A program made the translations under genes and the position numbers. Shown piece by piece: positions 18,003 to 25,055 of a stretch of DNA of 64,000 nt. The stretch lies in contig OZ257127.1 in assembly GCA_965278965.1 (NCBI GenBank), forward strand, positions 2,808,567 through 2,872,566, written 5' to 3'. The stretch is from Actinomycetes bacterium (lineage in GTDB: Bacteria; Actinomycetota; Actinomycetes; S36-B12). The first letter of the stretch is position 1; every line of letters begins with the position of its first letter. Below the pieces are notes generated by a model that saw nothing but the letters and a program-made list of their open reading frames with translations, made no database searches and was not told the DNA's origin.

Positions 18003-18148
18003 CCGTTTCGGTGGTCCACGGCCCGCTTCCGAGGTGTAGTTGCGCAGTCTCACGCGCACGGTCGCCAGTCTCGTGCCCACAGCTTGACCAAAGGATGGGT
18101 CCGTCGGGGTCGATCGGTGCGCTCGGGGAATCAGGGTCGGATCTCGAG

Positions 18149-18190
18149 CGGCCCTGGCAGGACTCGAGCCCGCGACACAAGGCCTAGGAA
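18149..18190 (-). repeat. Decayed copy of the 3' 42 nt of tRNA-Arg(CCT), anticodon loop to acceptor end; att-like remnant
   Basis: 35/42 identical to 24983-25024 in the same orientation. The anticodon stem no longer pairs and no 5' half is present. Confidence 0.6.
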
Positions 18191-18496
18191 CTGTCGAAGC
18201 CGGTGAGGATAGTTCTTGGGCAGCAGGGGAAACCACCCTTCCTGACTGGCGCCGAGATTCGCGCAGCCACAGCAGGCGTCCTGCGGGAATGCGACGGACT
18301 GCCGGGGCTGTCGAGCTGGGCAGCTCGCCTCTCGCGGGGTTCTATGGCGACCGGAACGACCGGAACTCCGAAATGTTGAGGGCTTCTTCTACAGCTGCGA
18401 CGAGCACGAGCACGAGCACGAGAGCGGCGGCCCGGCCACGGCCAGCGTCGACCTCGCGGGTTGACTGCCCGCACAGCGAACTTCTACGGTGCCCGT

Positions 18497-19555
18497 ATGG
18501 GGGATAGGCGGGGGTTTGTCGCGTTCACGGCGCTGGTGGTCGTCCTTGGTGTTGGCCTGGCCGCTCCGGGAGCGCAAGCAGCATCCGATGGTTCCAAGTG
18601 CTCAAAGGCTGGCTCGACCACGCAGAGCGGAAAGACGACTCTGAAGTGCGTTCGACTTGTCAGCGGTTCCTTCTGGCTGAAGTTGACGCCTGCGCCGTCC
18701 TCGTCGGCAGCCGGCATGTCGCAGCTCGCGAAGTGGCGTTCCGCCCTGACTCCCGCATGGACCGCTGACGCTGAAGCCCTGCTCGCACCAGAGAAGCTGC
18801 AGGCGGTCGCGGAGGCGGTTGCTCCGGTGCAAGCCGACCGGGATGCGAAGGCCGCGGTCGTCGCCCAGTCGAATGCGTCGACGGCTGCGATCAAGTCTCA
18901 GATCGACGCCCTGCCAGGGCAGATCAGCAGTGCGACCGCGGCCCTGCAGAAGGCGAACGCTGCTGTCGTTCAGCCGCGTGCCGACGCCGACGCGGCAAGG
19001 GCTAAGACCAGTGCGCTGCGGCCTGCGTACCTAGCAGCGAGCGACGCTCAGTACCAGATTCTCAAGTGTCAGGCGGCTGCGAAATACAACCCTTCGCTCT
19101 TGCCTTGCGGAAGCACCGCCCCGTACGACCTGCTCATTGCGCAATATCGCTCGGCGGAAGTGGCTGAGACTCTCGCGGTCGCGACCTACAACGCCTACGT
19201 GCGTGCCTCGAGTCAGAAGCTCGCCGACCTACAGGCACTGCTCAAGCAACAGACGGACCTACCGGGCCAGTACGACACCGCGCTTGCCCAGGCACGGAAC
19301 GATCAGACGATCCTCGACGACGCCGACCGCGCGCTCCAGGCGGCGACTGGCCGAGTAGTAGCGCAAGCGACCCTGCGCACCGCGCTCAATCGACTGTCGA
19401 GTTCGACTCAGAGCACCAGGAAGGCCCTCTCAGTTCGTCTAACGGGAAGTTCGTGGAGCGGCGCATTCCAAAGCTCGGCACTGGCCGCCGCCAAGCATCG
19501 AGTCCTCGCCGCGCAGGCGCAGCGCGCGTACGCGCAACTGGCCGCACTGGGCTAG
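18497..19555 (+). CDS. secreted Ala/Gln-rich coiled-coil-like protein of unknown function
   Basis: Signal peptide (FVAFTALVVVLGVGLAAPGAQA), a small Cys-containing N-terminal module, then a long Ala/Gln-rich helical region. Lower-GC codons than the core genome. Confidence 0.6.
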   Translation: MGDRRGFVAFTALVVVLGVGLAAPGAQAASDGSKCSKAGSTTQSGKTTLKCVRLVSGSFWLKLTPAPSSSAAGMSQLAKWRSALTPAWTADAEALLAPEKLQAVAEAVAPVQADRDAKAAVVAQSNASTAAIKSQIDALPGQISSATAALQKANAAVVQPRADADAARAKTSALRPAYLAASDAQYQILKCQAAAKYNPSLLPCGSTAPYDLLIAQYRSAEVAETLAVATYNAYVRASSQKLADLQALLKQQTDLPGQYDTALAQARNDQTILDDADRALQAATGRVVAQATLRTALNRLSSSTQSTRKALSVRLTGSSWSGAFQSSALAAAKHRVLAAQAQRAYAQLAALG

Positions 19556-19662
19556 GTGGGTCGGAAGGCCGCCCACGGCTAGCACGCTCACCTAGCCACT
19601 CAGCGCCATGGCGGCAGTCGTGGATCCTGACAATCATGTTGCAGCGCAGTATCGTTCGAGTG

Positions 19663-19688
19663 TGGCTCCGGCAGGATTCGAACCGGCA
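19663..19688 (-). repeat. Copy of the 3' 26 nt of tRNA-Arg(CCT), T-arm plus acceptor end; att-like remnant
   Basis: 23/26 identical to 24983-25008, with a perfect 17-nt core ccggcaggattcgaacc. Upstream sequence is unrelated to a tRNA. Confidence 0.65.
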
Positions 19689-19952
19689 TCGGACTGGCTT
19701 TGCTCTCTGGTGGATAGGTCCTAGTTCGATTTCGATCACATCGGAAACCCCTAGGCCTATCTAGCGGAGGGGCACTACTCGATGGCGGCCTCGAACGCCT
19801 TGCAGCCGAGCAGAACTGCGTTTCCCGCTAGCACCAGCGAAGCCACCGTCCTCGTCATCGTCCGGCTGTCTATCTGCTGGCGAACGTGTTCCTAGTCGGG
19901 CGAGGTCCTAGAGCCCTTCCGTCTCCTGTCGGAGGGGGTTCTTCGTTCGGGG

Positions 19953-20627
19953 CTAGACGTTGCGGCGATGATCTAGGTACTTCTGCCACCACTCTCGGAC
20001 CATCGAACCGACTGGCTCCTGCACCAAGGGCCCGGTGACTGCCGGTGCCTCTGCGCCTGCCACCGTCGCCGTTCTTGCCTCGGGCGGCATCCAGGGAGCC
20101 TCGCCGGCCTCATCGGCGGCGTTGTCGAGTGCGTCTGCTTCCGCGCGAAGGTCCTCGATCTCACGCTTCGTGGGGATCAGTTTGCGTCGAATCGCATAGA
20201 TCTCTTCCTGGACAACCTGACCGGTCGGAGTGCTATACACCGCGATACGAGTGCGGCGGTGAGCGTCCTTCCACCAGAAGTAGACAACCGCCGTCAACAG
20301 GGCGAGGCCAAGCAGGAGCGACCGAAACAGGGTGAGCAGTACCGAGATGCTCACGCCCACAACTCCGGTACCCGTCAGCCAGGGATTGTCTGCCGGCCTG
20401 CTGATTACGTAACTGTCACCGTCCTTGGAGTCGACGGTGAAACCCCCAGCGACGGCGTCGTTGACAGCGCTCTCAAGCCTTGCTCGTGCCTCTTCTGGAG
20501 GGAGTGGAACCGGAGGTTTGGGCACCCAGTTCCGACCGTCCCAGACCAGGGTCACCTTCTCGTCCCCGGCCTCCTTGCCGTTTAGCAGGAAGTCCCCCAT
20601 GGCGAAAACGTAGCCGAGACCTCCCAT
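19953..20627 (-). CDS. hypothetical membrane protein: N-terminal soluble domain, TM segment(s), C-terminal charged helix
   Basis: 224-aa ORF with a hydrophobic stretch (VVGVSISVLLTLFRSLLLGLALLTAVVYFWW). Its ATG directly follows the TGA of micro-ORF 1 (TGAATG). An alternative ATG is at 20600. Confidence 0.6.
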   Translation of the reverse strand: MGGLGYVFAMGDFLLNGKEAGDEKVTLVWDGRNWVPKPPVPLPPEEARARLESAVNDAVAGGFTVDSKDGDSYVISRPADNPWLTGTGVVGVSISVLLTLFRSLLLGLALLTAVVYFWWKDAHRRTRIAVYSTPTGQVVQEEIYAIRRKLIPTKREIEDLRAEADALDNAADEAGEAPWMPPEARTATVAGAEAPAVTGPLVQEPVGSMVREWWQKYLDHRRNV

Positions 20628-20711
20628 TCACGGACCTGGGAAACACGTATCACCGGAGCTGGACGCTGCCTCGTGCCGCCTCCGTCGGGCGTCGTTCAGC
20701 ATCGCCCACAT
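20628..20711 (-). CDS. candidate micro-ORF 1 (27 aa, MWAMLNDARRRRHEAASSSGDTCFPGP)
   Basis: Paralogous to 22759-22851. The shared 34-nt core (20682-20715) differs at 3 positions, all synonymous in this frame. The stop abuts the next gene's ATG. No clear SD; upstream GTG 20738 and TTG 20735 are also possible starts. Confidence 0.35.
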   Translation of the reverse strand: MWAMLNDARRRRHEAASSSGDTCFPGP

Positions 20712-20765
20712 CGCCGACGATTTGCGACTTGGCAACACCCAAGCGATCCCCTGAACAGTAAGTCG

Positions 20766-21506
20766 CTATACCAGCCAGTCGATCGTGGCCGAATCGCCCA
20801 CAGCTTCTAGTAGGTCGATGATTCGACGCCGTCCTCGCCCCAGGTCTGTCCACATGAGTTCCTCTATGGCGACGATATAGAGGGTCGTTGAGTCTTCTCC
20901 ATGTTGCTGAAGCGTCACCTTGATGCTTGCATGCCACGAGGTGAGCCTCACGCCCTGGGTGAACACAAGGCGCGACGGCAGAGTGCTACGGCCTTTCGCC
21001 AGTCGAAATCCGATATGGGCTGCGGCTTGGAGGAGCCGGTCCGCGGTTTGATCGATCGGGAGATCAACATGGGCGGTTGCCTCGTGGGTTGCTCCGCGCG
21101 CGCTCGTCACTGTCGGTGGCCGAGCCGCGGGGGGCGAGAGGAGCTCGCCTGTGAGCTGGTCTGGGTGCGGCACCGTGTGGTCAGTCCAGACGTGCCCGTT
21201 CCAGTAGCGCAGCTGGTCGGTCGCGTTGGGTTCGGGGTTGGCGTACCAGCCCGGCGACGGCGACGCCGACGACGACGTCATCGAGCTCACGAGCCGGACG
21301 CCCTCAACCACGATCCAGATTGCCAGTCCTCCGCCGACACAAACTAGGACAAGGCCCGAATTGAACATGACTTCGGAATATCGGTCAGGGGTGATGCTGA
21401 CGCTTATCAGCACGAACGCAGCGATTTCAACGACGAACAAGATCGCGATGCCGACACCCAACTTGATCACGCCGACCTTGGCCCTGCGTTCCATCTCGCT
21501 TCCCAT
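20766..21506 (-). CDS. membrane protein with two TM helices, a DUF2510-like motif and an unknown C-terminal domain
   Basis: GWYANPEPNATDQLRYWNGHVWTDH matches the DUF2510 GWYPDP..RYWDG..WT pattern. The start is set at ATG 21506 (or 21494), because the 82-aa upstream extension of ORF 20766-21752 is Arg/Pro-rich and overlaps a divergent ORF. Confidence 0.6.
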   Translation of the reverse strand: MGSEMERRAKVGVIKLGVGIAILFVVEIAAFVLISVSITPDRYSEVMFNSGLVLVCVGGGLAIWIVVEGVRLVSSMTSSSASPSPGWYANPEPNATDQLRYWNGHVWTDHTVPHPDQLTGELLSPPAARPPTVTSARGATHEATAHVDLPIDQTADRLLQAAAHIGFRLAKGRSTLPSRLVFTQGVRLTSWHASIKVTLQQHGEDSTTLYIVAIEELMWTDLGRGRRRIIDLLEAVGDSATIDWLV

Positions 21507-21637
21507 CCCCCGACGCGCACGGTTGCGGCGGCGTGGCACCGTCGCTGCGCTCCAAAGTATGTCGCGTGAAGTGATCGGCCGGTCGGTTCGGGATCCGCTT
21601 GTCGTCCCGAGGCAATTGATAGCTGTGAAGTCCGTGC

Positions 21638-22021
21638 TTGGCGGCGCCGGGCGACCGGCGTGCCTATCCTGAGGGAGTGAGTCAGCCGTCGCCTCTGGGG
21701 CAGGCTGCTGCCTATAACGCGGCTCTAGCCAAGGGCCAGCAGTGGGTTCCATGGCAGTTGGTAAGTGAAGGTCCAGGGCTCGCGACGATCTTCAACATCG
21801 GGTCAACGGCGGCGCTACGCGTTCGTGTGGCGGCCGAACCCGGCACAGAGCTAGTCGAAGTCGAAGGTCCAGTCGACGACGTTGGGCCTGGTCGCTATTT
21901 GACGATCCGTTTCCGAGCGAGCTGGGCTGGCCCCCCGACGTTCGTCGTTCGGTGGCGCTGGCCGGCAGGGAGCCGACTGGGTGAGGTCGGCAAGCAGGTT
22001 CTCTCACTCGAAGACGCCTAG
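21638..22021 (+). CDS. hypothetical protein
   Basis: 127-aa ORF divergent from the DUF2510 gene, with protein-like composition. Start is uncertain (TTG 21638 or GTG 21677). Two small hairpins follow the stop. Confidence 0.4.
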   Translation: MAAPGDRRAYPEGVSQPSPLGQAAAYNAALAKGQQWVPWQLVSEGPGLATIFNIGSTAALRVRVAAEPGTELVEVEGPVDDVGPGRYLTIRFRASWAGPPTFVVRWRWPAGSRLGEVGKQVLSLEDA

Positions 22022-22157
22022 TGAGGCAGGCTAATGGCCTGGCGGTACTCCGGCTACGGGGGAGGACATTTCGAGACGTCCTCAGACGCGTTGCTTGCGC
22101 GTCAGACTCGCCAACTTACTTGGGAGTCGTTGCGCAGTGGCGTCGCGTTGAACTAGT

Positions 22158-22167
22158 GGGGGGGGGG
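22158..22167 (+). repeat. Homopolymeric G10 tract 2 nt upstream of a GTG start codon
   Basis: Counted directly: 10 consecutive G at 22158-22167, followed by CT and then GTG 22170. Confidence 0.9.
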
Positions 22168-22169
22168 CT

Positions 22170-22463
22170 GTGGGCCGGCTGTTACGAGTTCTCATTGCTG
22201 CTGCCTGCTGGGCCGCCGCGCTCCTGTTTTCGTTTATCTCCTTCACGGTCGCTGAGCTTGCGTTGGCGGTGGCTTTTGCAGTGGCATTCGTAGGAGCCGC
22301 CCTAACCGCCGGAATCATCTACGCAGTGATCGCGCCGTGGACCTTCGTTCGGGTTCTCGCGTTCACGGTGGGGTTGTACGTGGTTGGCGTAGTCCTGATG
22401 AGCGCTTCGCTCGTCCCAGCTGTCATCGCGAGAGCGAACTACACCGTCCTGTCGACAGGGTAA
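22170..22463 (+). CDS. small hydrophobic membrane protein (about 3 TM)
   Basis: 97-aa ORF that is almost entirely hydrophobic (LIAAACWAAALLFSFISFTVAELALAVAFAVAFVGAAL...). Confidence 0.5.
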   Translation: MGRLLRVLIAAACWAAALLFSFISFTVAELALAVAFAVAFVGAALTAGIIYAVIAPWTFVRVLAFTVGLYVVGVVLMSASLVPAVIARANYTVLSTG

Positions 22464-22469
22464 GAGGTC

Positions 22470-22688
22470 GTGCGGCTGGCGGCATTCTTGGCGGCCTTGT
22501 CGCTGTTCATCGTCGGCGTGCGATACATCGCGGCAACCGTCGGGATTCAAGTGATCGAGAGCGGGAAGCGTCACGGTGTCGACCGCTCGGAAGACACGGC
22601 GCTCCTTCTAGGACCGTTCCTTCGGGAGTTCCGGCTCACTACCGGGCAAGGGAAGGCGCCCGGAGGCAGCCAGGCGCCCGACGACTAG
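22470..22688 (+). CDS. small membrane protein (1 TM plus a charged tail)
   Basis: 72-aa ORF starting 6 nt after the previous TAA. N-terminal TM segment (LAAFLAALSLFIVGV). Confidence 0.4.
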   Translation: MRLAAFLAALSLFIVGVRYIAATVGIQVIESGKRHGVDRSEDTALLLGPFLREFRLTTGQGKAPGGSQAPDD

Positions 22689-22758
22689 TTGCGGATCGGC
22701 CGGTTGTCAGAGTCGTGCTCGTTCGGCTTCCGTCTTCGCCCGACCAGCGGAGGCGGTG

Positions 22759-22851
22759 CTAGCCGTTTCGTGGCTCGCCTCCAGCGGCTCGGACGGCCTC
22801 GGCCTCATAGCGCTGCCGTCGGGCATCGTTCAACATTGCCCACATCGCCAT
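22759..22851 (-). CDS. candidate micro-ORF 2 (30 aa, MAMWAMLNDARRQRYEAEAVRAAGGEPRNG)
   Basis: Paralogue of micro-ORF 1. The core 22816-22849 is 31/34 identical, and the differences are GCG/GCA, CTG/TTG and GAC/GAT, all synonymous. Confidence 0.3.
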   Translation of the reverse strand: MAMWAMLNDARRQRYEAEAVRAAGGEPRNG

Positions 22852-22867
22852 GACCGGGTCTACGTCG

Positions 22868-23197
22868 TCAGGTGGCTGCTAGGGGCTGGCTGGGTCGTCC
22901 ATGGCGGGAGTATCCGCAGACTTGGGTCCGGTCAAACCTGGCCTCAAGCGTCCGGGTCAATGCCCCAGTTCTGGAGGTAGGCGCGAAGCGCCTGTATCCA
23001 CGTTCGGCGGCACCCGGTGCTGTCGTCGACATCGGACGACGACGAGCAGTACGTATGGGGGAAGGCAGCCGATCGCTTGTACCGCTGACGGCGACTTCTG
23101 CTGTCGTCAGAAGCGCGGCCTTCACCTCACCCTCTGTTGGCGCTGCGGACACCGGCTGGGCGAGCACTAGGCCCGCCGTCACTGCTCCGACCGCCAA
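22868..23197 (-). pseudogene. possible eroded or frameshifted small secreted-protein gene
   Basis: Signal-peptide-like start (RRFVLLAVGAVTAGLVLAQPVSAAP) but no ATG/GTG for it. The second half of the 109-aa frame is Arg/Pro-rich, while another frame gives the more protein-like ...TWIQALRAYLQNWGIDPDA*. Confidence 0.3.
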
Positions 23198-23339
23198 CAG
23201 AACGAACCGTCGCGCTATGTCCTGGATCGCCCTCCGACCTCCGGAAACGTACCCAGCCGGAACGATCTTTGGTGCGACTCACCGGGCGCTGACGACCGCG
23301 AGGTCCGTCCCGTCGAGCTCGTTCCTACAGCCACCGCCG

Positions 23340-23996
23340 CTACCCGCAGTATTCGGAAACGACCTGCTGCACAACCGCGCCGGCTGCTTGCTCGCCGAGC
23401 CCGACTGCCTTGCCAATCTCGACCACCCGGCCGATCTCAGAGGTGCTGAGTGTCATCGACGCGCATCCACGCGAGGCGCCGTCCTGCGTCACTTGCGTAG
23501 ACCAAAGGAGAAGCTCCCGATACGCCTCAGTCCGGCCCGCGAGGGAGAAGGGTTCCGGCATCTTCACCGAGCCGCACAGCCAGTTGAGAATCGCCGTCCC
23601 AACTGTTTCGGCGTCCGCAGAGATGTCCGGCAGTCCGACGATCTCCCCCTGCGACGAATCCTCCTGTTCCAGCCCTTGCAGAACGGACGCACCATATTCG
23701 ACGGCTCCGTCGGGCGAGGAGAACTTCTCGCAGCCGTCCTTCCAGCCCGGCTCGGTCAACTCGCCGCTCTCAATGCTGTAGGAGACCATTGCCTCGCTAA
23801 ACGCGATGGCCGCCTTCAGCCCCGCAGCATGAACGCTCGACGCGGCATTCATGCCCGTCGCACCAGAAGCGGGCTGAGCGGTCGGCGCACCAGAAGTCGG
23901 CAGAGCGGTCGACGAATCGGCCGATGTCGAGCACCCTGCCAGCGCCAGACTCGCAACTGCCGCGAATACGGCGAAAGCTGTCCTTGTCCGCCTCAT
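23340..23996 (-). CDS. lipoprotein of unknown function
   Basis: Signal peptide with lipobox (AAVASLALAGCSTS), a Ser/Thr/Ala/Pro-rich linker, and a Cys-containing globular domain. Confidence 0.7.
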   Translation of the reverse strand: MRRTRTAFAVFAAVASLALAGCSTSADSSTALPTSGAPTAQPASGATGMNAASSVHAAGLKAAIAFSEAMVSYSIESGELTEPGWKDGCEKFSSPDGAVEYGASVLQGLEQEDSSQGEIVGLPDISADAETVGTAILNWLCGSVKMPEPFSLAGRTEAYRELLLWSTQVTQDGASRGCASMTLSTSEIGRVVEIGKAVGLGEQAAGAVVQQVVSEYCG

Positions 23997-24100
23997 TCCC
24001 CCACCGCCCCCGGTATCAGCCAGCGAGTCGATCGCCGACCGGGAAGTCTAGTCGGGGACATTGGTTGTCGGTCGGTTGTCCCGAACTGGCCCGCCCTAGT

Positions 24101-24703
24101 GTGCTGCGGGTGTCCCGCATACCCCGCTGGGGAGTCGTCACGGCCGCGGCAGCCCCTGCGCTGCTCGTCACCGGATGGACGATCGCCGCGCGGCTGCAGC
24201 CGGGAGGCTTCGACTCCGCCACCCAGACGATCAGTGCGCTCGCGGCGGTTGACGCATCCCATCGCTGGGTCATGACCGCCGCCATCGTGGGAACGGGCGC
24301 GGCTCAGGTCGCGACAGCTGTCGCACTGCGGCCGGCAGCACGGACGGGCCGGATCCTGCTCGCGGCCGGTGGCGTGTGCACGATGCTCGTTGCCGCATTC
24401 CCGCTACCAGCCAGTTCGGGCACGTCGCCTGCGCATGTGGTCGCCGCCGCGGGGTCGTTCAGCTTGCTAGCGGCGTGGCCGCTGCTGAGCTGGCAGCGTG
24501 GGTCGGACGTGCCATGGGGCCTTCGGCGTCGTGTGGCGACGACGGCCGGGTGCGCTTTGGTGCTGGCCACGGCCTTGTTCTTCCTCGACGCCGCTACAGA
24601 CGGCGCATACATCGGACTCACGGAGCGTGCCGCAGCCGTACTGCTGAACCTGTGGCCGCTCGCCGTCGCGGTCTCAGCGAGCGCTACGAGGCGGGAAAGC
24701 TGA
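24101..24703 (+). CDS. DUF998-like integral membrane protein
   Basis: About 200 aa with about 6 TM. The pattern LQPGGFDSATQTISALAA..RWVMTAAIV is reminiscent of DUF998. Start is GTG 24101 or 24110, in frame within ORF 23924-24703. Confidence 0.55.
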   Translation: MLRVSRIPRWGVVTAAAAPALLVTGWTIAARLQPGGFDSATQTISALAAVDASHRWVMTAAIVGTGAAQVATAVALRPAARTGRILLAAGGVCTMLVAAFPLPASSGTSPAHVVAAAGSFSLLAAWPLLSWQRGSDVPWGLRRRVATTAGCALVLATALFFLDAATDGAYIGLTERAAAVLLNLWPLAVAVSASATRRES

Positions 24704-24982
24704 CCTTGGTGCAGGGTCGAGCGGGTGGTCGGCCGAGTTTGCGGATACAGGCCCTGGGTGGCGATCGTGTCCCAACCCGAACCGACTGACGGAGGGCTCA
24801 CCGCCTGTCGGTGGTCGACATGTACGGAGCACAGGGGGATTGCCGTGCCCCTAGCGTGCCCTAGCGAGATGCACGTTGGGGTCGCTGAGGGGCCGTCGGG
24901 GCCGCTTGAGGCCATCGCCGAACTGGTCTATACGCGTCTCTTCTGCGTTGCAAACAAGAAGAAATCGCGATCCGGCTTGAAG

Positions 24983-25055
24983 TGGCCCCGGCAGGATTCG
25001 AACCTGCGACACAAGGTTTAGGAAACCTCTGCTCTATCCCCTGAGCTACGGAGCC
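24983..25055 (-). tRNA. tRNA-Arg (anticodon CCT)
   Basis: Manually folded 73-nt cloverleaf: acceptor GGCTCCG/CGGGGCC, D-arm GCTC..GAGC, anticodon loop TTCCTAA, T-arm GCAGG-TTCGAAT-CCTGC, discriminator A. CCA is not encoded. Confidence 0.9.

Follow-up and report, generated by a model that had tools for sequence, protein, structure and literature searches.

Two copies of a short repeat, found on the minus strand of a 64,000-nucleotide (nt) stretch of an actinomycete contig (OZ257127.1, positions 2,808,567 to 2,872,566; hereafter the window, with positions counted from its first letter), and a third copy in an uncultured relative represent an element that is real, rare and constrained. Both window copies lie in a low-G+C island at a tRNA-Arg(CCT) gene (Table 1). 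Our preferred reading, tentative and at a little under even confidence, is that the copies would be the start of a small open reading frame (ORF), possibly with an embedded hairpin. Three sequences are too few to separate a peptide from a small hairpin, and the two readings do not exclude each other.

The repeat pair and its third copy

Direct comparison of segments 20682-20715 and 22816-22849 gave 31 identities over 34 nt, the minus-strand sequences being GGCGATGTGGGCGATGCTGAACGACGCCCGACGG (20715-20682) and GGCGATGTGGGCAATGTTGAACGATGCCCGACGG (22849-22816). The three differences (GCG/GCA, CTG/TTG and GAC/GAT) are all synonymous in one frame, SAMWAMLNDARRRRHEAAS and MAMWAMLNDARRQRYEAEA, and not in the other five, as the initial annotation had reported for the minus-strand MWAMLNDARR frame. 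The peptides in this frame are S-A-M-W-A-M-L-N-D-A-R-R-R-R-H-E-A for copy 1 and M-A-M-W-A-M-L-N-D-A-R-R-Q-R-Y-E-A for copy 2, and a tandem 9-nt repeat (GGCGATGTG and GGCGATGCT) lies inside the core. The ungapped repeat extends over 55 nt at 80% identity (20661-20715 and 22795-22849) and is far beyond chance; it was the sole similarity between the neighbourhoods of the two copies in a blastn comparison of 1.9 kb against 1.9 kb (expect value, E=3.8e-9). Paralogy of the genes upstream of the copies was rejected, nothing similar being present beyond the 55 nt. A degenerate pattern with up to three mismatches matched the window at exactly these positions, with no match in 100 shuffles, and a sensitive tiling alignment of the whole window returned no third copy, even a weak one. 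The chance of an all-synonymous pattern, roughly estimated in the annotation at about 10%, was 8.6% in 20,000 simulations (three random transitions in a 34-mer, all synonymous in some stop-free frame), so the pair by itself is suggestive only, as was stated there.

The copies are 2.1 kb apart, each after cargo genes of the same strand, and the micro-ORFs that hold them (27 and 30 codons) have the coordinates first assigned to them. Copy 1 has an alternative in-frame GTG start at 20738, which would give 36 residues, and its TGA directly precedes, in frame, the ATG of a 224-residue membrane-protein ORF, an abutment that was confirmed. Copy 2 was likewise confirmed to be partnerless, sitting in a convergent intergenic gap after the frameshifted secreted-protein gene and followed by no gene on its strand. 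A single reading frame runs through the DUF2510 gene, the copy 1 micro-ORF and the 224-residue ORF (window 19953-21752, minus strand), interrupted by a TAG plus 17 codons and then by the single TGA; this is probably a coincidence, as the relative has no such arrangement.

The 224-residue protein has exactly one other cluster among 5.8 billion proteins, 57% identical and encoded on short metagenome contigs of an uncultured relative, and the third copy of the repeat was found upstream of this homologue in the same orientation (contig L001, 1510-1581). Its sequence reads ATC GTG GCG ACG TGG GCG ATT TTG GAC GAC GCC CGC CGA ACC CGG GAG GAG ... TGA, with an open ORF of 22 codons from a GTG start (L001:1513-1581) encoding (M)ATWAILDDARRTREE..., in full (M)ATWAILDDARRTREEPAESVG followed by the stop. 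The eight contigs recovered, five of them via members of the homologue cluster, are 100% identical over the motif region and count as one independent sequence. The core of L001 matches copy 1 at 28 of 34 positions and copy 2 at 27 of 34, with three conservative changes (M>T, M>I and N>D) and two synonymous ones in Arg codons.

The relative's locus starts with tRNA-Arg(CCT) (L001:9-82) and continues with a pair of membrane-protein genes (one is DUF4190), about 200 nt and the motif, which is followed by about 130 nt, a 31-nt repeat of the tRNA 3' end (L001:1714-1744, 96.8%), about 70 nt and the gene of the 224-residue homologue; the motif lies at the tRNA-distal end of a 1.7-kb unit without an integrase. 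Copy 2 aligns with the relative well beyond the core (Table 1), over a tract that includes the upstream block A, an in-frame TAG between block A and the copy 2 micro-ORF, and a conserved GACCCGrTC before the start. Outside the window, the source contig (3.68 Mb) encodes a 238-residue DUF4190 protein (P0010) that is 71% identical to the motif-adjacent one of the relative, and an additional motif copy may be present at this locus.

Constraint on the core and its codon pattern

Between the window and the relative, the neighbouring gene pair has a proportion of synonymous differences (pS) of 0.53 (synonymous divergence, dS, about 0.9) and a proportion of nonsynonymous differences (pN) of 0.20, and 34-nt windows of this gene contain on average 24.4 identities, with a maximum of 30. 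The neutral expectation at this divergence is near 16 of 34, against 27-28 of 34 in the core. The core is thus under constraint, because it keeps this identity where about 53% of the neighbour's synonymous sites have changed. Conservation is also patchy, the core and the 21-nt block A (20/21) being split by unalignable sequence with an indel, which favours selection over recent copying.

Several features of the three copies resemble those of a coding sequence. Variable columns number 6, 4 and 11 at codon positions 1, 2 and 3, respectively, out of 18 each. Nei-Gojobori (NG86) pN/pS values in the micro-ORF frame are 0.29, 0.68 and 0.51, compared with 0.9-3.2 in four other frames, and pS in this frame (0.41-0.54) matches the 0.53 of the neighbouring gene. 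Each of the three copies has a start, a stop and an open frame between them, and codons 1-19 are free of indels. At the codon two before the Trp, copy 2 has ATG, L001 has GTG and copy 1 has TCG but keeps the next ATG, a turnover of start codons that fits a translated ORF. Upstream of the start, copy 2 and L001 differ mostly at position 1 and not at position 3, a changed pattern that fits an ORF starting at the proposed site. The G+C content at third codon positions (GC3) is 0.69-0.76 in the micro-ORFs and 0.72-0.76 in real island genes. The comparison of substitution rates across more homologues, which the initial annotation had proposed, comes down to one extra independent sequence and to values of 0.29-0.68, which rank lowest or nearly so among the six frames. 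Its proposal of purifying selection on a peptide holds in part, in that the frame is open in the third copy, position 3 is in excess and pN/pS is low; the synonymy of the pair, from which it had been drawn, is explained equally well by one base pair of a hairpin, described below.

According to the small-ORF reading, the copies would be one short selected module placed at the tRNA-distal end of integrase-less units of about 2 kb stacked at the 3' end of tRNA-Arg(CCT). The core would form roughly the first 17 codons of a small ORF that the units carry, 22-30 codons long and absent from the annotation, with a constrained N-terminal part, A-(M/T)-W-A-(M/I)-L-(N/D)-D-A-R-R-x-R-x-E, and a tail and stop position that would vary freely. 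Translation of the micro-ORF, which we infer, would ride on transcripts of the upstream same-strand gene or use non-canonical initiation, because a Shine-Dalgarno sequence is absent in every copy. The G+C-rich hairpin of codons 4-11 would belong to the same module, for example by tuning initiation, and the copy 1 TGA-ATG junction, particular to the source genome, would permit termination-reinitiation into the 224-residue gene. A further-reaching version appears very improbable to us as a whole: the module would be the sole shared backbone of an undescribed family of integrase-less mini-elements of about 2 kb that target tRNA-Arg(CCT), with a peptide of 20-30 residues (helix AxWAxLxDARRxRxE) exploiting a helper integrase. 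Such a peptide might, for example, be a minimal directionality or recruitment factor, or a nascent-peptide sensor coupling terminal transcription to the neighbouring host gene.

A number of observations weigh against the small-ORF reading. The position-3 excess has a one-sided Fisher p=0.019 before correction for three frames and from only three independent sequences; the fifth other frame, an antisense one, has similarly low pN/pS (0.47-0.62), but with a stop in copy 2; and a G/C-skew test was not significant (pooled p=0.11), being powerless at such length. No GGAGG-like Shine-Dalgarno sequence was found within 20 nt of any candidate start in the three copies, no TANNNT box at leaderless distance (-12 to -7) at any copy, and no sigma-70-like or other promoter-like site by scanning before any copy. 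The tails are unrelated and differ in length (27, 30 and 22 codons), the C-terminal halves being unconserved. Conservation between copy 2 and the relative reaches about 95 nt upstream of the ORF, past an in-frame stop, and block A, their best-conserved piece, falls outside the ORF. Placement at the end of a unit rests on one clear case (L001), and an attachment-site (att) core was not detectable within 300 nt of either window copy. Profile searches for MWAMLNDARR-like peptides, suggested in the annotation, found no relative in 5.8 billion or 1.84 billion proteins: a two-peptide profile yielded three word candidates and zero scoring ones in the larger index, and HMMER against 1.84 billion representatives one chance match, in a 1207-residue repeat protein, an absence of limited reach as ORFs of 22-30 codons are rarely called as genes. 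Lastly, two of the three differences between copies 1 and 2 (GCG/GCA and GAC/GAT) occupy opposite sides of a single base pair, 12 nt apart and both at third positions; together they form one compensatory pair, so that structure accounts for the "all synonymous" pattern equally well.

A candidate promoter in copy 2 (TTGAAC...TATGAG) was rejected, its -10 box being unconserved in both copy 1 and L001, and promoter scanning being empty. DNA searches for further copies were also negative. The strict peptide-degenerate pattern had no match in species-representative genomes, where the loose pattern had nine, all inside unrelated proteins (adenylosuccinate-synthetase-like, response-regulator-like). 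In metagenome contigs the strict pattern had no match either, which is weak evidence as this collection also missed the motif-bearing Joint Genome Institute (JGI) contigs L016 and L017, and block A had four chance matches inside other genes. Viral contigs, searched with three patterns and for relatives of the 224-residue protein, returned nothing, and BLAST against phages and plasmids, with DNA and protein, returned nothing relevant.

A possible hairpin or recombination site

The compensatory pair leads to an alternative that we consider unlikely but of real weight, namely that the element is a nucleic-acid site and not a gene, consisting of a G+C-rich hairpin or inverted repeat of 5-7 base pairs (GGGCG-N11-CGCCC) with its flanks and block A. 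As RNA it would act on stability or processing from within the 3' part of the upstream gene; as DNA it could be bound by a protein, for instance as an arm-type or accessory recombination site at the attR-proximal end of the island units, or as an operator. RNAalifold predicted the stem in all three copies with 100% pairing, the closing pair of copy 2 being changed from G:C to A:U on both sides. The L001 changes between the arms are all in the loop, its A>C change adds a pair, and the isolated 31-nt hairpins have folding energies of -9.3, -9.9 and -11.9 kcal/mol (z = -1.6 to -2.2). Two random changes would fall on one of five pairs with a chance of about 3% (15/561), compared with 8.6% for an all-synonymous outcome. 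Conservation beyond the ORF (block A at 20/21 and GACCCGrTC before the start), the missing translation signals at all three copies, the position of the L001 core about 170 nt from the att repeat, inside arm distance, and the tandem 9-nt repeat in the core are also compatible with a site.

Even so, the hairpin is only modestly stable in these predictions: its stem is short, and folds of 101 nt are no better than shuffles (z = -0.3 to -1.7). Rfam had no match in addition to the tRNA, by which a known RNA family was rejected, and a covariation control with three sequences was uninformative (171/500). Neither the position-3 excess nor a low pN/pS specific to this frame is expected from a uniformly constrained site, and codon-like conservation (R-x-R-x-E) continues for at least 20 nt 3' of the hairpin. 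A recombination site is further disfavoured by the lack of a second copy or sub-motif near the other att end or elsewhere, by the absence of an att core near both window copies (the arm-type distance fits L001 alone; alignment p=0.13-0.66) and by the arm-like repeats adjacent to the relative's integrase (ATTGGGCAC twice), which differ from the core.

Relic gene or leader peptide as less likely readings

The island is decaying, with a frameshifted secreted-protein gene, lost or degraded att repeats and no integrase, and the copies could be the remnant 5' ends of a longer gene of the island units, copied with the units and later truncated, so that the codon pattern would be a fossil and the micro-ORFs inert. 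Homology of copy 1 begins abruptly at the core, resembling a rearrangement breakpoint, and translation signals are absent. Block A, translated as MDDPASP, is in frame with the micro-ORF in copy 2 but cut off by the TAG, and is one base out of frame in L001, which could be two different lesions of one older ORF. We nevertheless judge such a relic improbable. At pS 0.53 and dS about 0.9, a neutral relic is expected to be unalignable, whereas the core is 79-82% identical between genomes. Similarity is lost at about the same codon in the three copies, which requires either three independent truncations at a single point or an early truncation with conservation thereafter, the latter being unexplained by a relic. 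Neither protein collection (5.8 billion and 1.84 billion sequences) yielded a full-length relative of the putative longer gene.

In leader peptides that sense drugs or metabolites, such as the erm leaders, the N-terminal part is conserved and the tail free, and the copies resemble this pattern. The micro-ORF might then be a translated leader peptide (an upstream ORF) controlling the 224-residue gene either through translational coupling or through pausing of ribosomes at the Arg cluster (CGA CGG AGG CGG). The TGA-ATG junction of copy 1, the same rare gene family following on the same strand in two of three cases and a stable hairpin after the conserved part of L001 (-42.9 kcal/mol, z = -1.7) are in line with such control, which we regard as quite improbable all the same. 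In the relative, the ORF stops about 130 nt from the tRNA-derived att repeat and about 230 nt from the start of the 224-residue gene, and integration probably juxtaposed motif and gene; copy 2 lacks a downstream gene altogether. The Arg run is not retained (RRRR, RRQR and RRTR), folds and site scans revealed no terminator, antiterminator or alternative sequestering the ribosome-binding site, and a leaderless promoter, as in the mycobacterial polycysteine small ORFs (sORFs; 10.1101/834739), is absent.

The N-terminal 25 residues of the 224-residue ORF align weakly with the relative, and the window appears to have lost about 290 nt that are present in the relative, so that the copy 1 junction is most simply a lineage-specific deletion, one that probably removed the att scar still found in the relative. 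The junction is not the conserved function, and the view of copy 1, annotated as translationally abutted to the gene, as a leader did not survive the comparison: the abutment is unconserved, with about 230 nt and an att repeat in its place in the relative and no gene after copy 2. That the micro-ORF might be the N-terminus of the 224-residue protein, split by the TGA, was also rejected; the frames agree in the window but differ in the relative, where the att repeat lies between them.

The island at tRNA-Arg(CCT)

The island (window 18147-25055) has a G+C content of 62-66%, compared with 70-74% in its flanks, and contains small membrane and secreted proteins: a DUF998 protein, a 218-residue lipoprotein, the frameshifted secreted-protein gene, two small opposite-strand membrane ORFs, the DUF2510 protein and the 224-residue protein. 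Searches of Pfam, PHROGs and NCBIfam detected no recombinase and no phage-like or other named family in the window island. Derivation of the motif from an opposite-strand integrase gene, as its relic, was rejected, tblastn with the relative's integrase being empty in the window and in L001. In strain variants of the relative (L016 and L017), this tRNA site is occupied by a tyrosine recombinase element (L016:3-1130), the recombinase being 131 nt from a 46-nt tRNA fragment, which indicates that integration at the tRNA-Arg hot spot is active. A perfect tandem, ATTGGGCAC-GG-ATTGGGCAC (L016:1170-1200), lies between the start of the integrase and this fragment, and its repeats are candidate arm-type sites of the L016 integrase.

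From its sequence features, the island consists of decayed integrated units stacked at the tRNA gene, of the kind known from cis-mobilizable elements (CIMEs) and accretion. The 2.1 kb between the copies would fit two units that integrated successively, the intervening att repeats having since been lost; a degraded att core right after copy 1 or 2 was sought and rejected, alignment scores being no better than shuffles. The relative's first unit gene (L001:121-678) and the 224-residue protein (window 20540-20560) have a common W-D-G-x-x-W of DUF2510 type (tblastx, E=3e-4), and the membrane proteins carried by the island units form a related, fast-evolving set.

Three further details of the island were recorded. 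A G10 homopolymer (22158-22167, plus strand), 2 nt upstream of the GTG of a 97-residue membrane ORF (22170-22463), could be a slippage-prone or assembly-error hotspot. The 109-residue ORF at 22868-23197 (minus strand) has a good signal peptide followed by Arg-rich nonsense, and another frame of the region has a protein-like end (...TWIQALRAYLQNWGIDPDA and a stop near 22945); it looks like a frameshifted gene for a small secreted protein. In the 218-residue lipoprotein gene, a 27-nt tandem duplication (88%; 23859-23911, minus strand) encodes a repeated TA(L/Q)P(T/A)SGA(P/T) linker.

Table 1 Features of the repeat copies and of the tRNA-Arg(CCT) island in the window.
Feature	Position	Strand	Remarks
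Copy 1 conserved segment	20661..20715	-	core of 34 nt at 20682-20715, plus 21 nt of weaker similarity
Copy 2 conserved segment	22795..22849	-	
Copy 1 micro-ORF (putative)	20628..20711	-	MWAMLNDARRRRHEAASSSGDTCFPGP, 27 codons + TGA
Copy 2 micro-ORF (putative)	22759..22851	-	MAMWAMLNDARRQRYEAEAVRAAGGEPRNG, 30 codons + TAG
Copy 1 hairpin (predicted)	20687..20707	-	GGGCG, 11-nt loop, CGCCC
Copy 2 hairpin (predicted)	22821..22841	-	GGGCA, 11-nt loop, UGCCC; closing pair changed on both sides relative to copy 1
Copy 2 full tract alignable with the relative	22795..22945	-	L001 about 1400-1560; begins right after the stop of the frameshifted gene
Upstream block A	22882..22902	-	ATGGACGACCCAGCCAGCCCC; 20/21 identical to L001:1455-1475; outside the micro-ORF; copy 1 has no block A
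224-residue membrane-protein gene, 3' of copy 1	19953..20627	-	sole homologue cluster (57% identical) lies 3' of the third copy
tRNA-Arg(CCT)	24982..25055	-	integration target anchoring the island
tRNA-Arg 3'-end direct repeat	19662..19687	-	att-type scar; 92%
Second, older repeat of the tRNA-Arg 3' part	18147..18190	-	outer island edge; 84% over 44 nt

Comparison with known systems

If translated, the element would be a lineage-restricted small protein of decayed tRNA-linked islands, a class missed by gene callers and protein databases. It also carries a caution, as the two-copy "all synonymous" argument is mimicked exactly by one compensatory pair whose sides are a multiple of three apart. 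Its practical weight is minor, this being a very rare element in a region of fast-evolving membrane and secreted proteins.

Like the erm-type leader peptides, the copies keep their first 12-17 residues and leave the remainder and the stop position free; they differ in having no conserved regulated gene and no alternative mRNA structures that could be found. Arm-type and accessory sites lie in the attP and attR arms of elements with tyrosine integrases, of which lambda is the paradigm. The relative's motif resembles them in being a short conserved segment that contains a tandem 9-mer and lies about 170 nt away from the att core of an element end, and differs from them by its single copy per unit, the lack of a copy in the other arm, its codon-patterned substitutions and its dissimilarity to the ATTGGGCAC repeats.

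CIMEs and tandem accretion at tRNA genes have been reviewed by Guedon et al. 2017 (PMC5704250). The units compared here are alike in having no integrase or transfer genes, in their boundaries, formed by the tRNA and by repeats of its 3' end, and in their tandem arrangement, with a functional integrase element at the same site in a related strain; CIMEs were defined in Firmicutes via retained attL and attR and with shown mobilisation, whereas here the att repeats are partly degraded or missing and the units are known from their sequence. Unlike a CIME boundary, the repeat studied here is not an att core.

The polycysteine leaderless sORF attenuators (Canestrari et al., 10.1101/834739) share with copy 1 a short upstream ORF, a cluster of a single amino acid (here Arg) and the abutment. 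They differ from the element in that it has no TANNNT leaderless start, its Arg run is lost, its downstream linkage is unconserved and one copy is partnerless. Similar in general appearance are the short ORFs that ribosome profiling has revealed outside the annotation of G+C-rich actinobacteria (Shell et al. 2015, PMC4633059; Smith et al. 2022, PMC9094748), which are also very short, without a Shine-Dalgarno sequence, situated between annotated genes and missed by gene callers; our codon-position (G/C-skew) test follows the latter study (PMC9094748). Most ribosome-profiled short ORFs have no sign of selection (PMC9094748), and unlike most of these, the present element, known here from sequence alone, is conserved between paralogues and over a dS of about 0.9.

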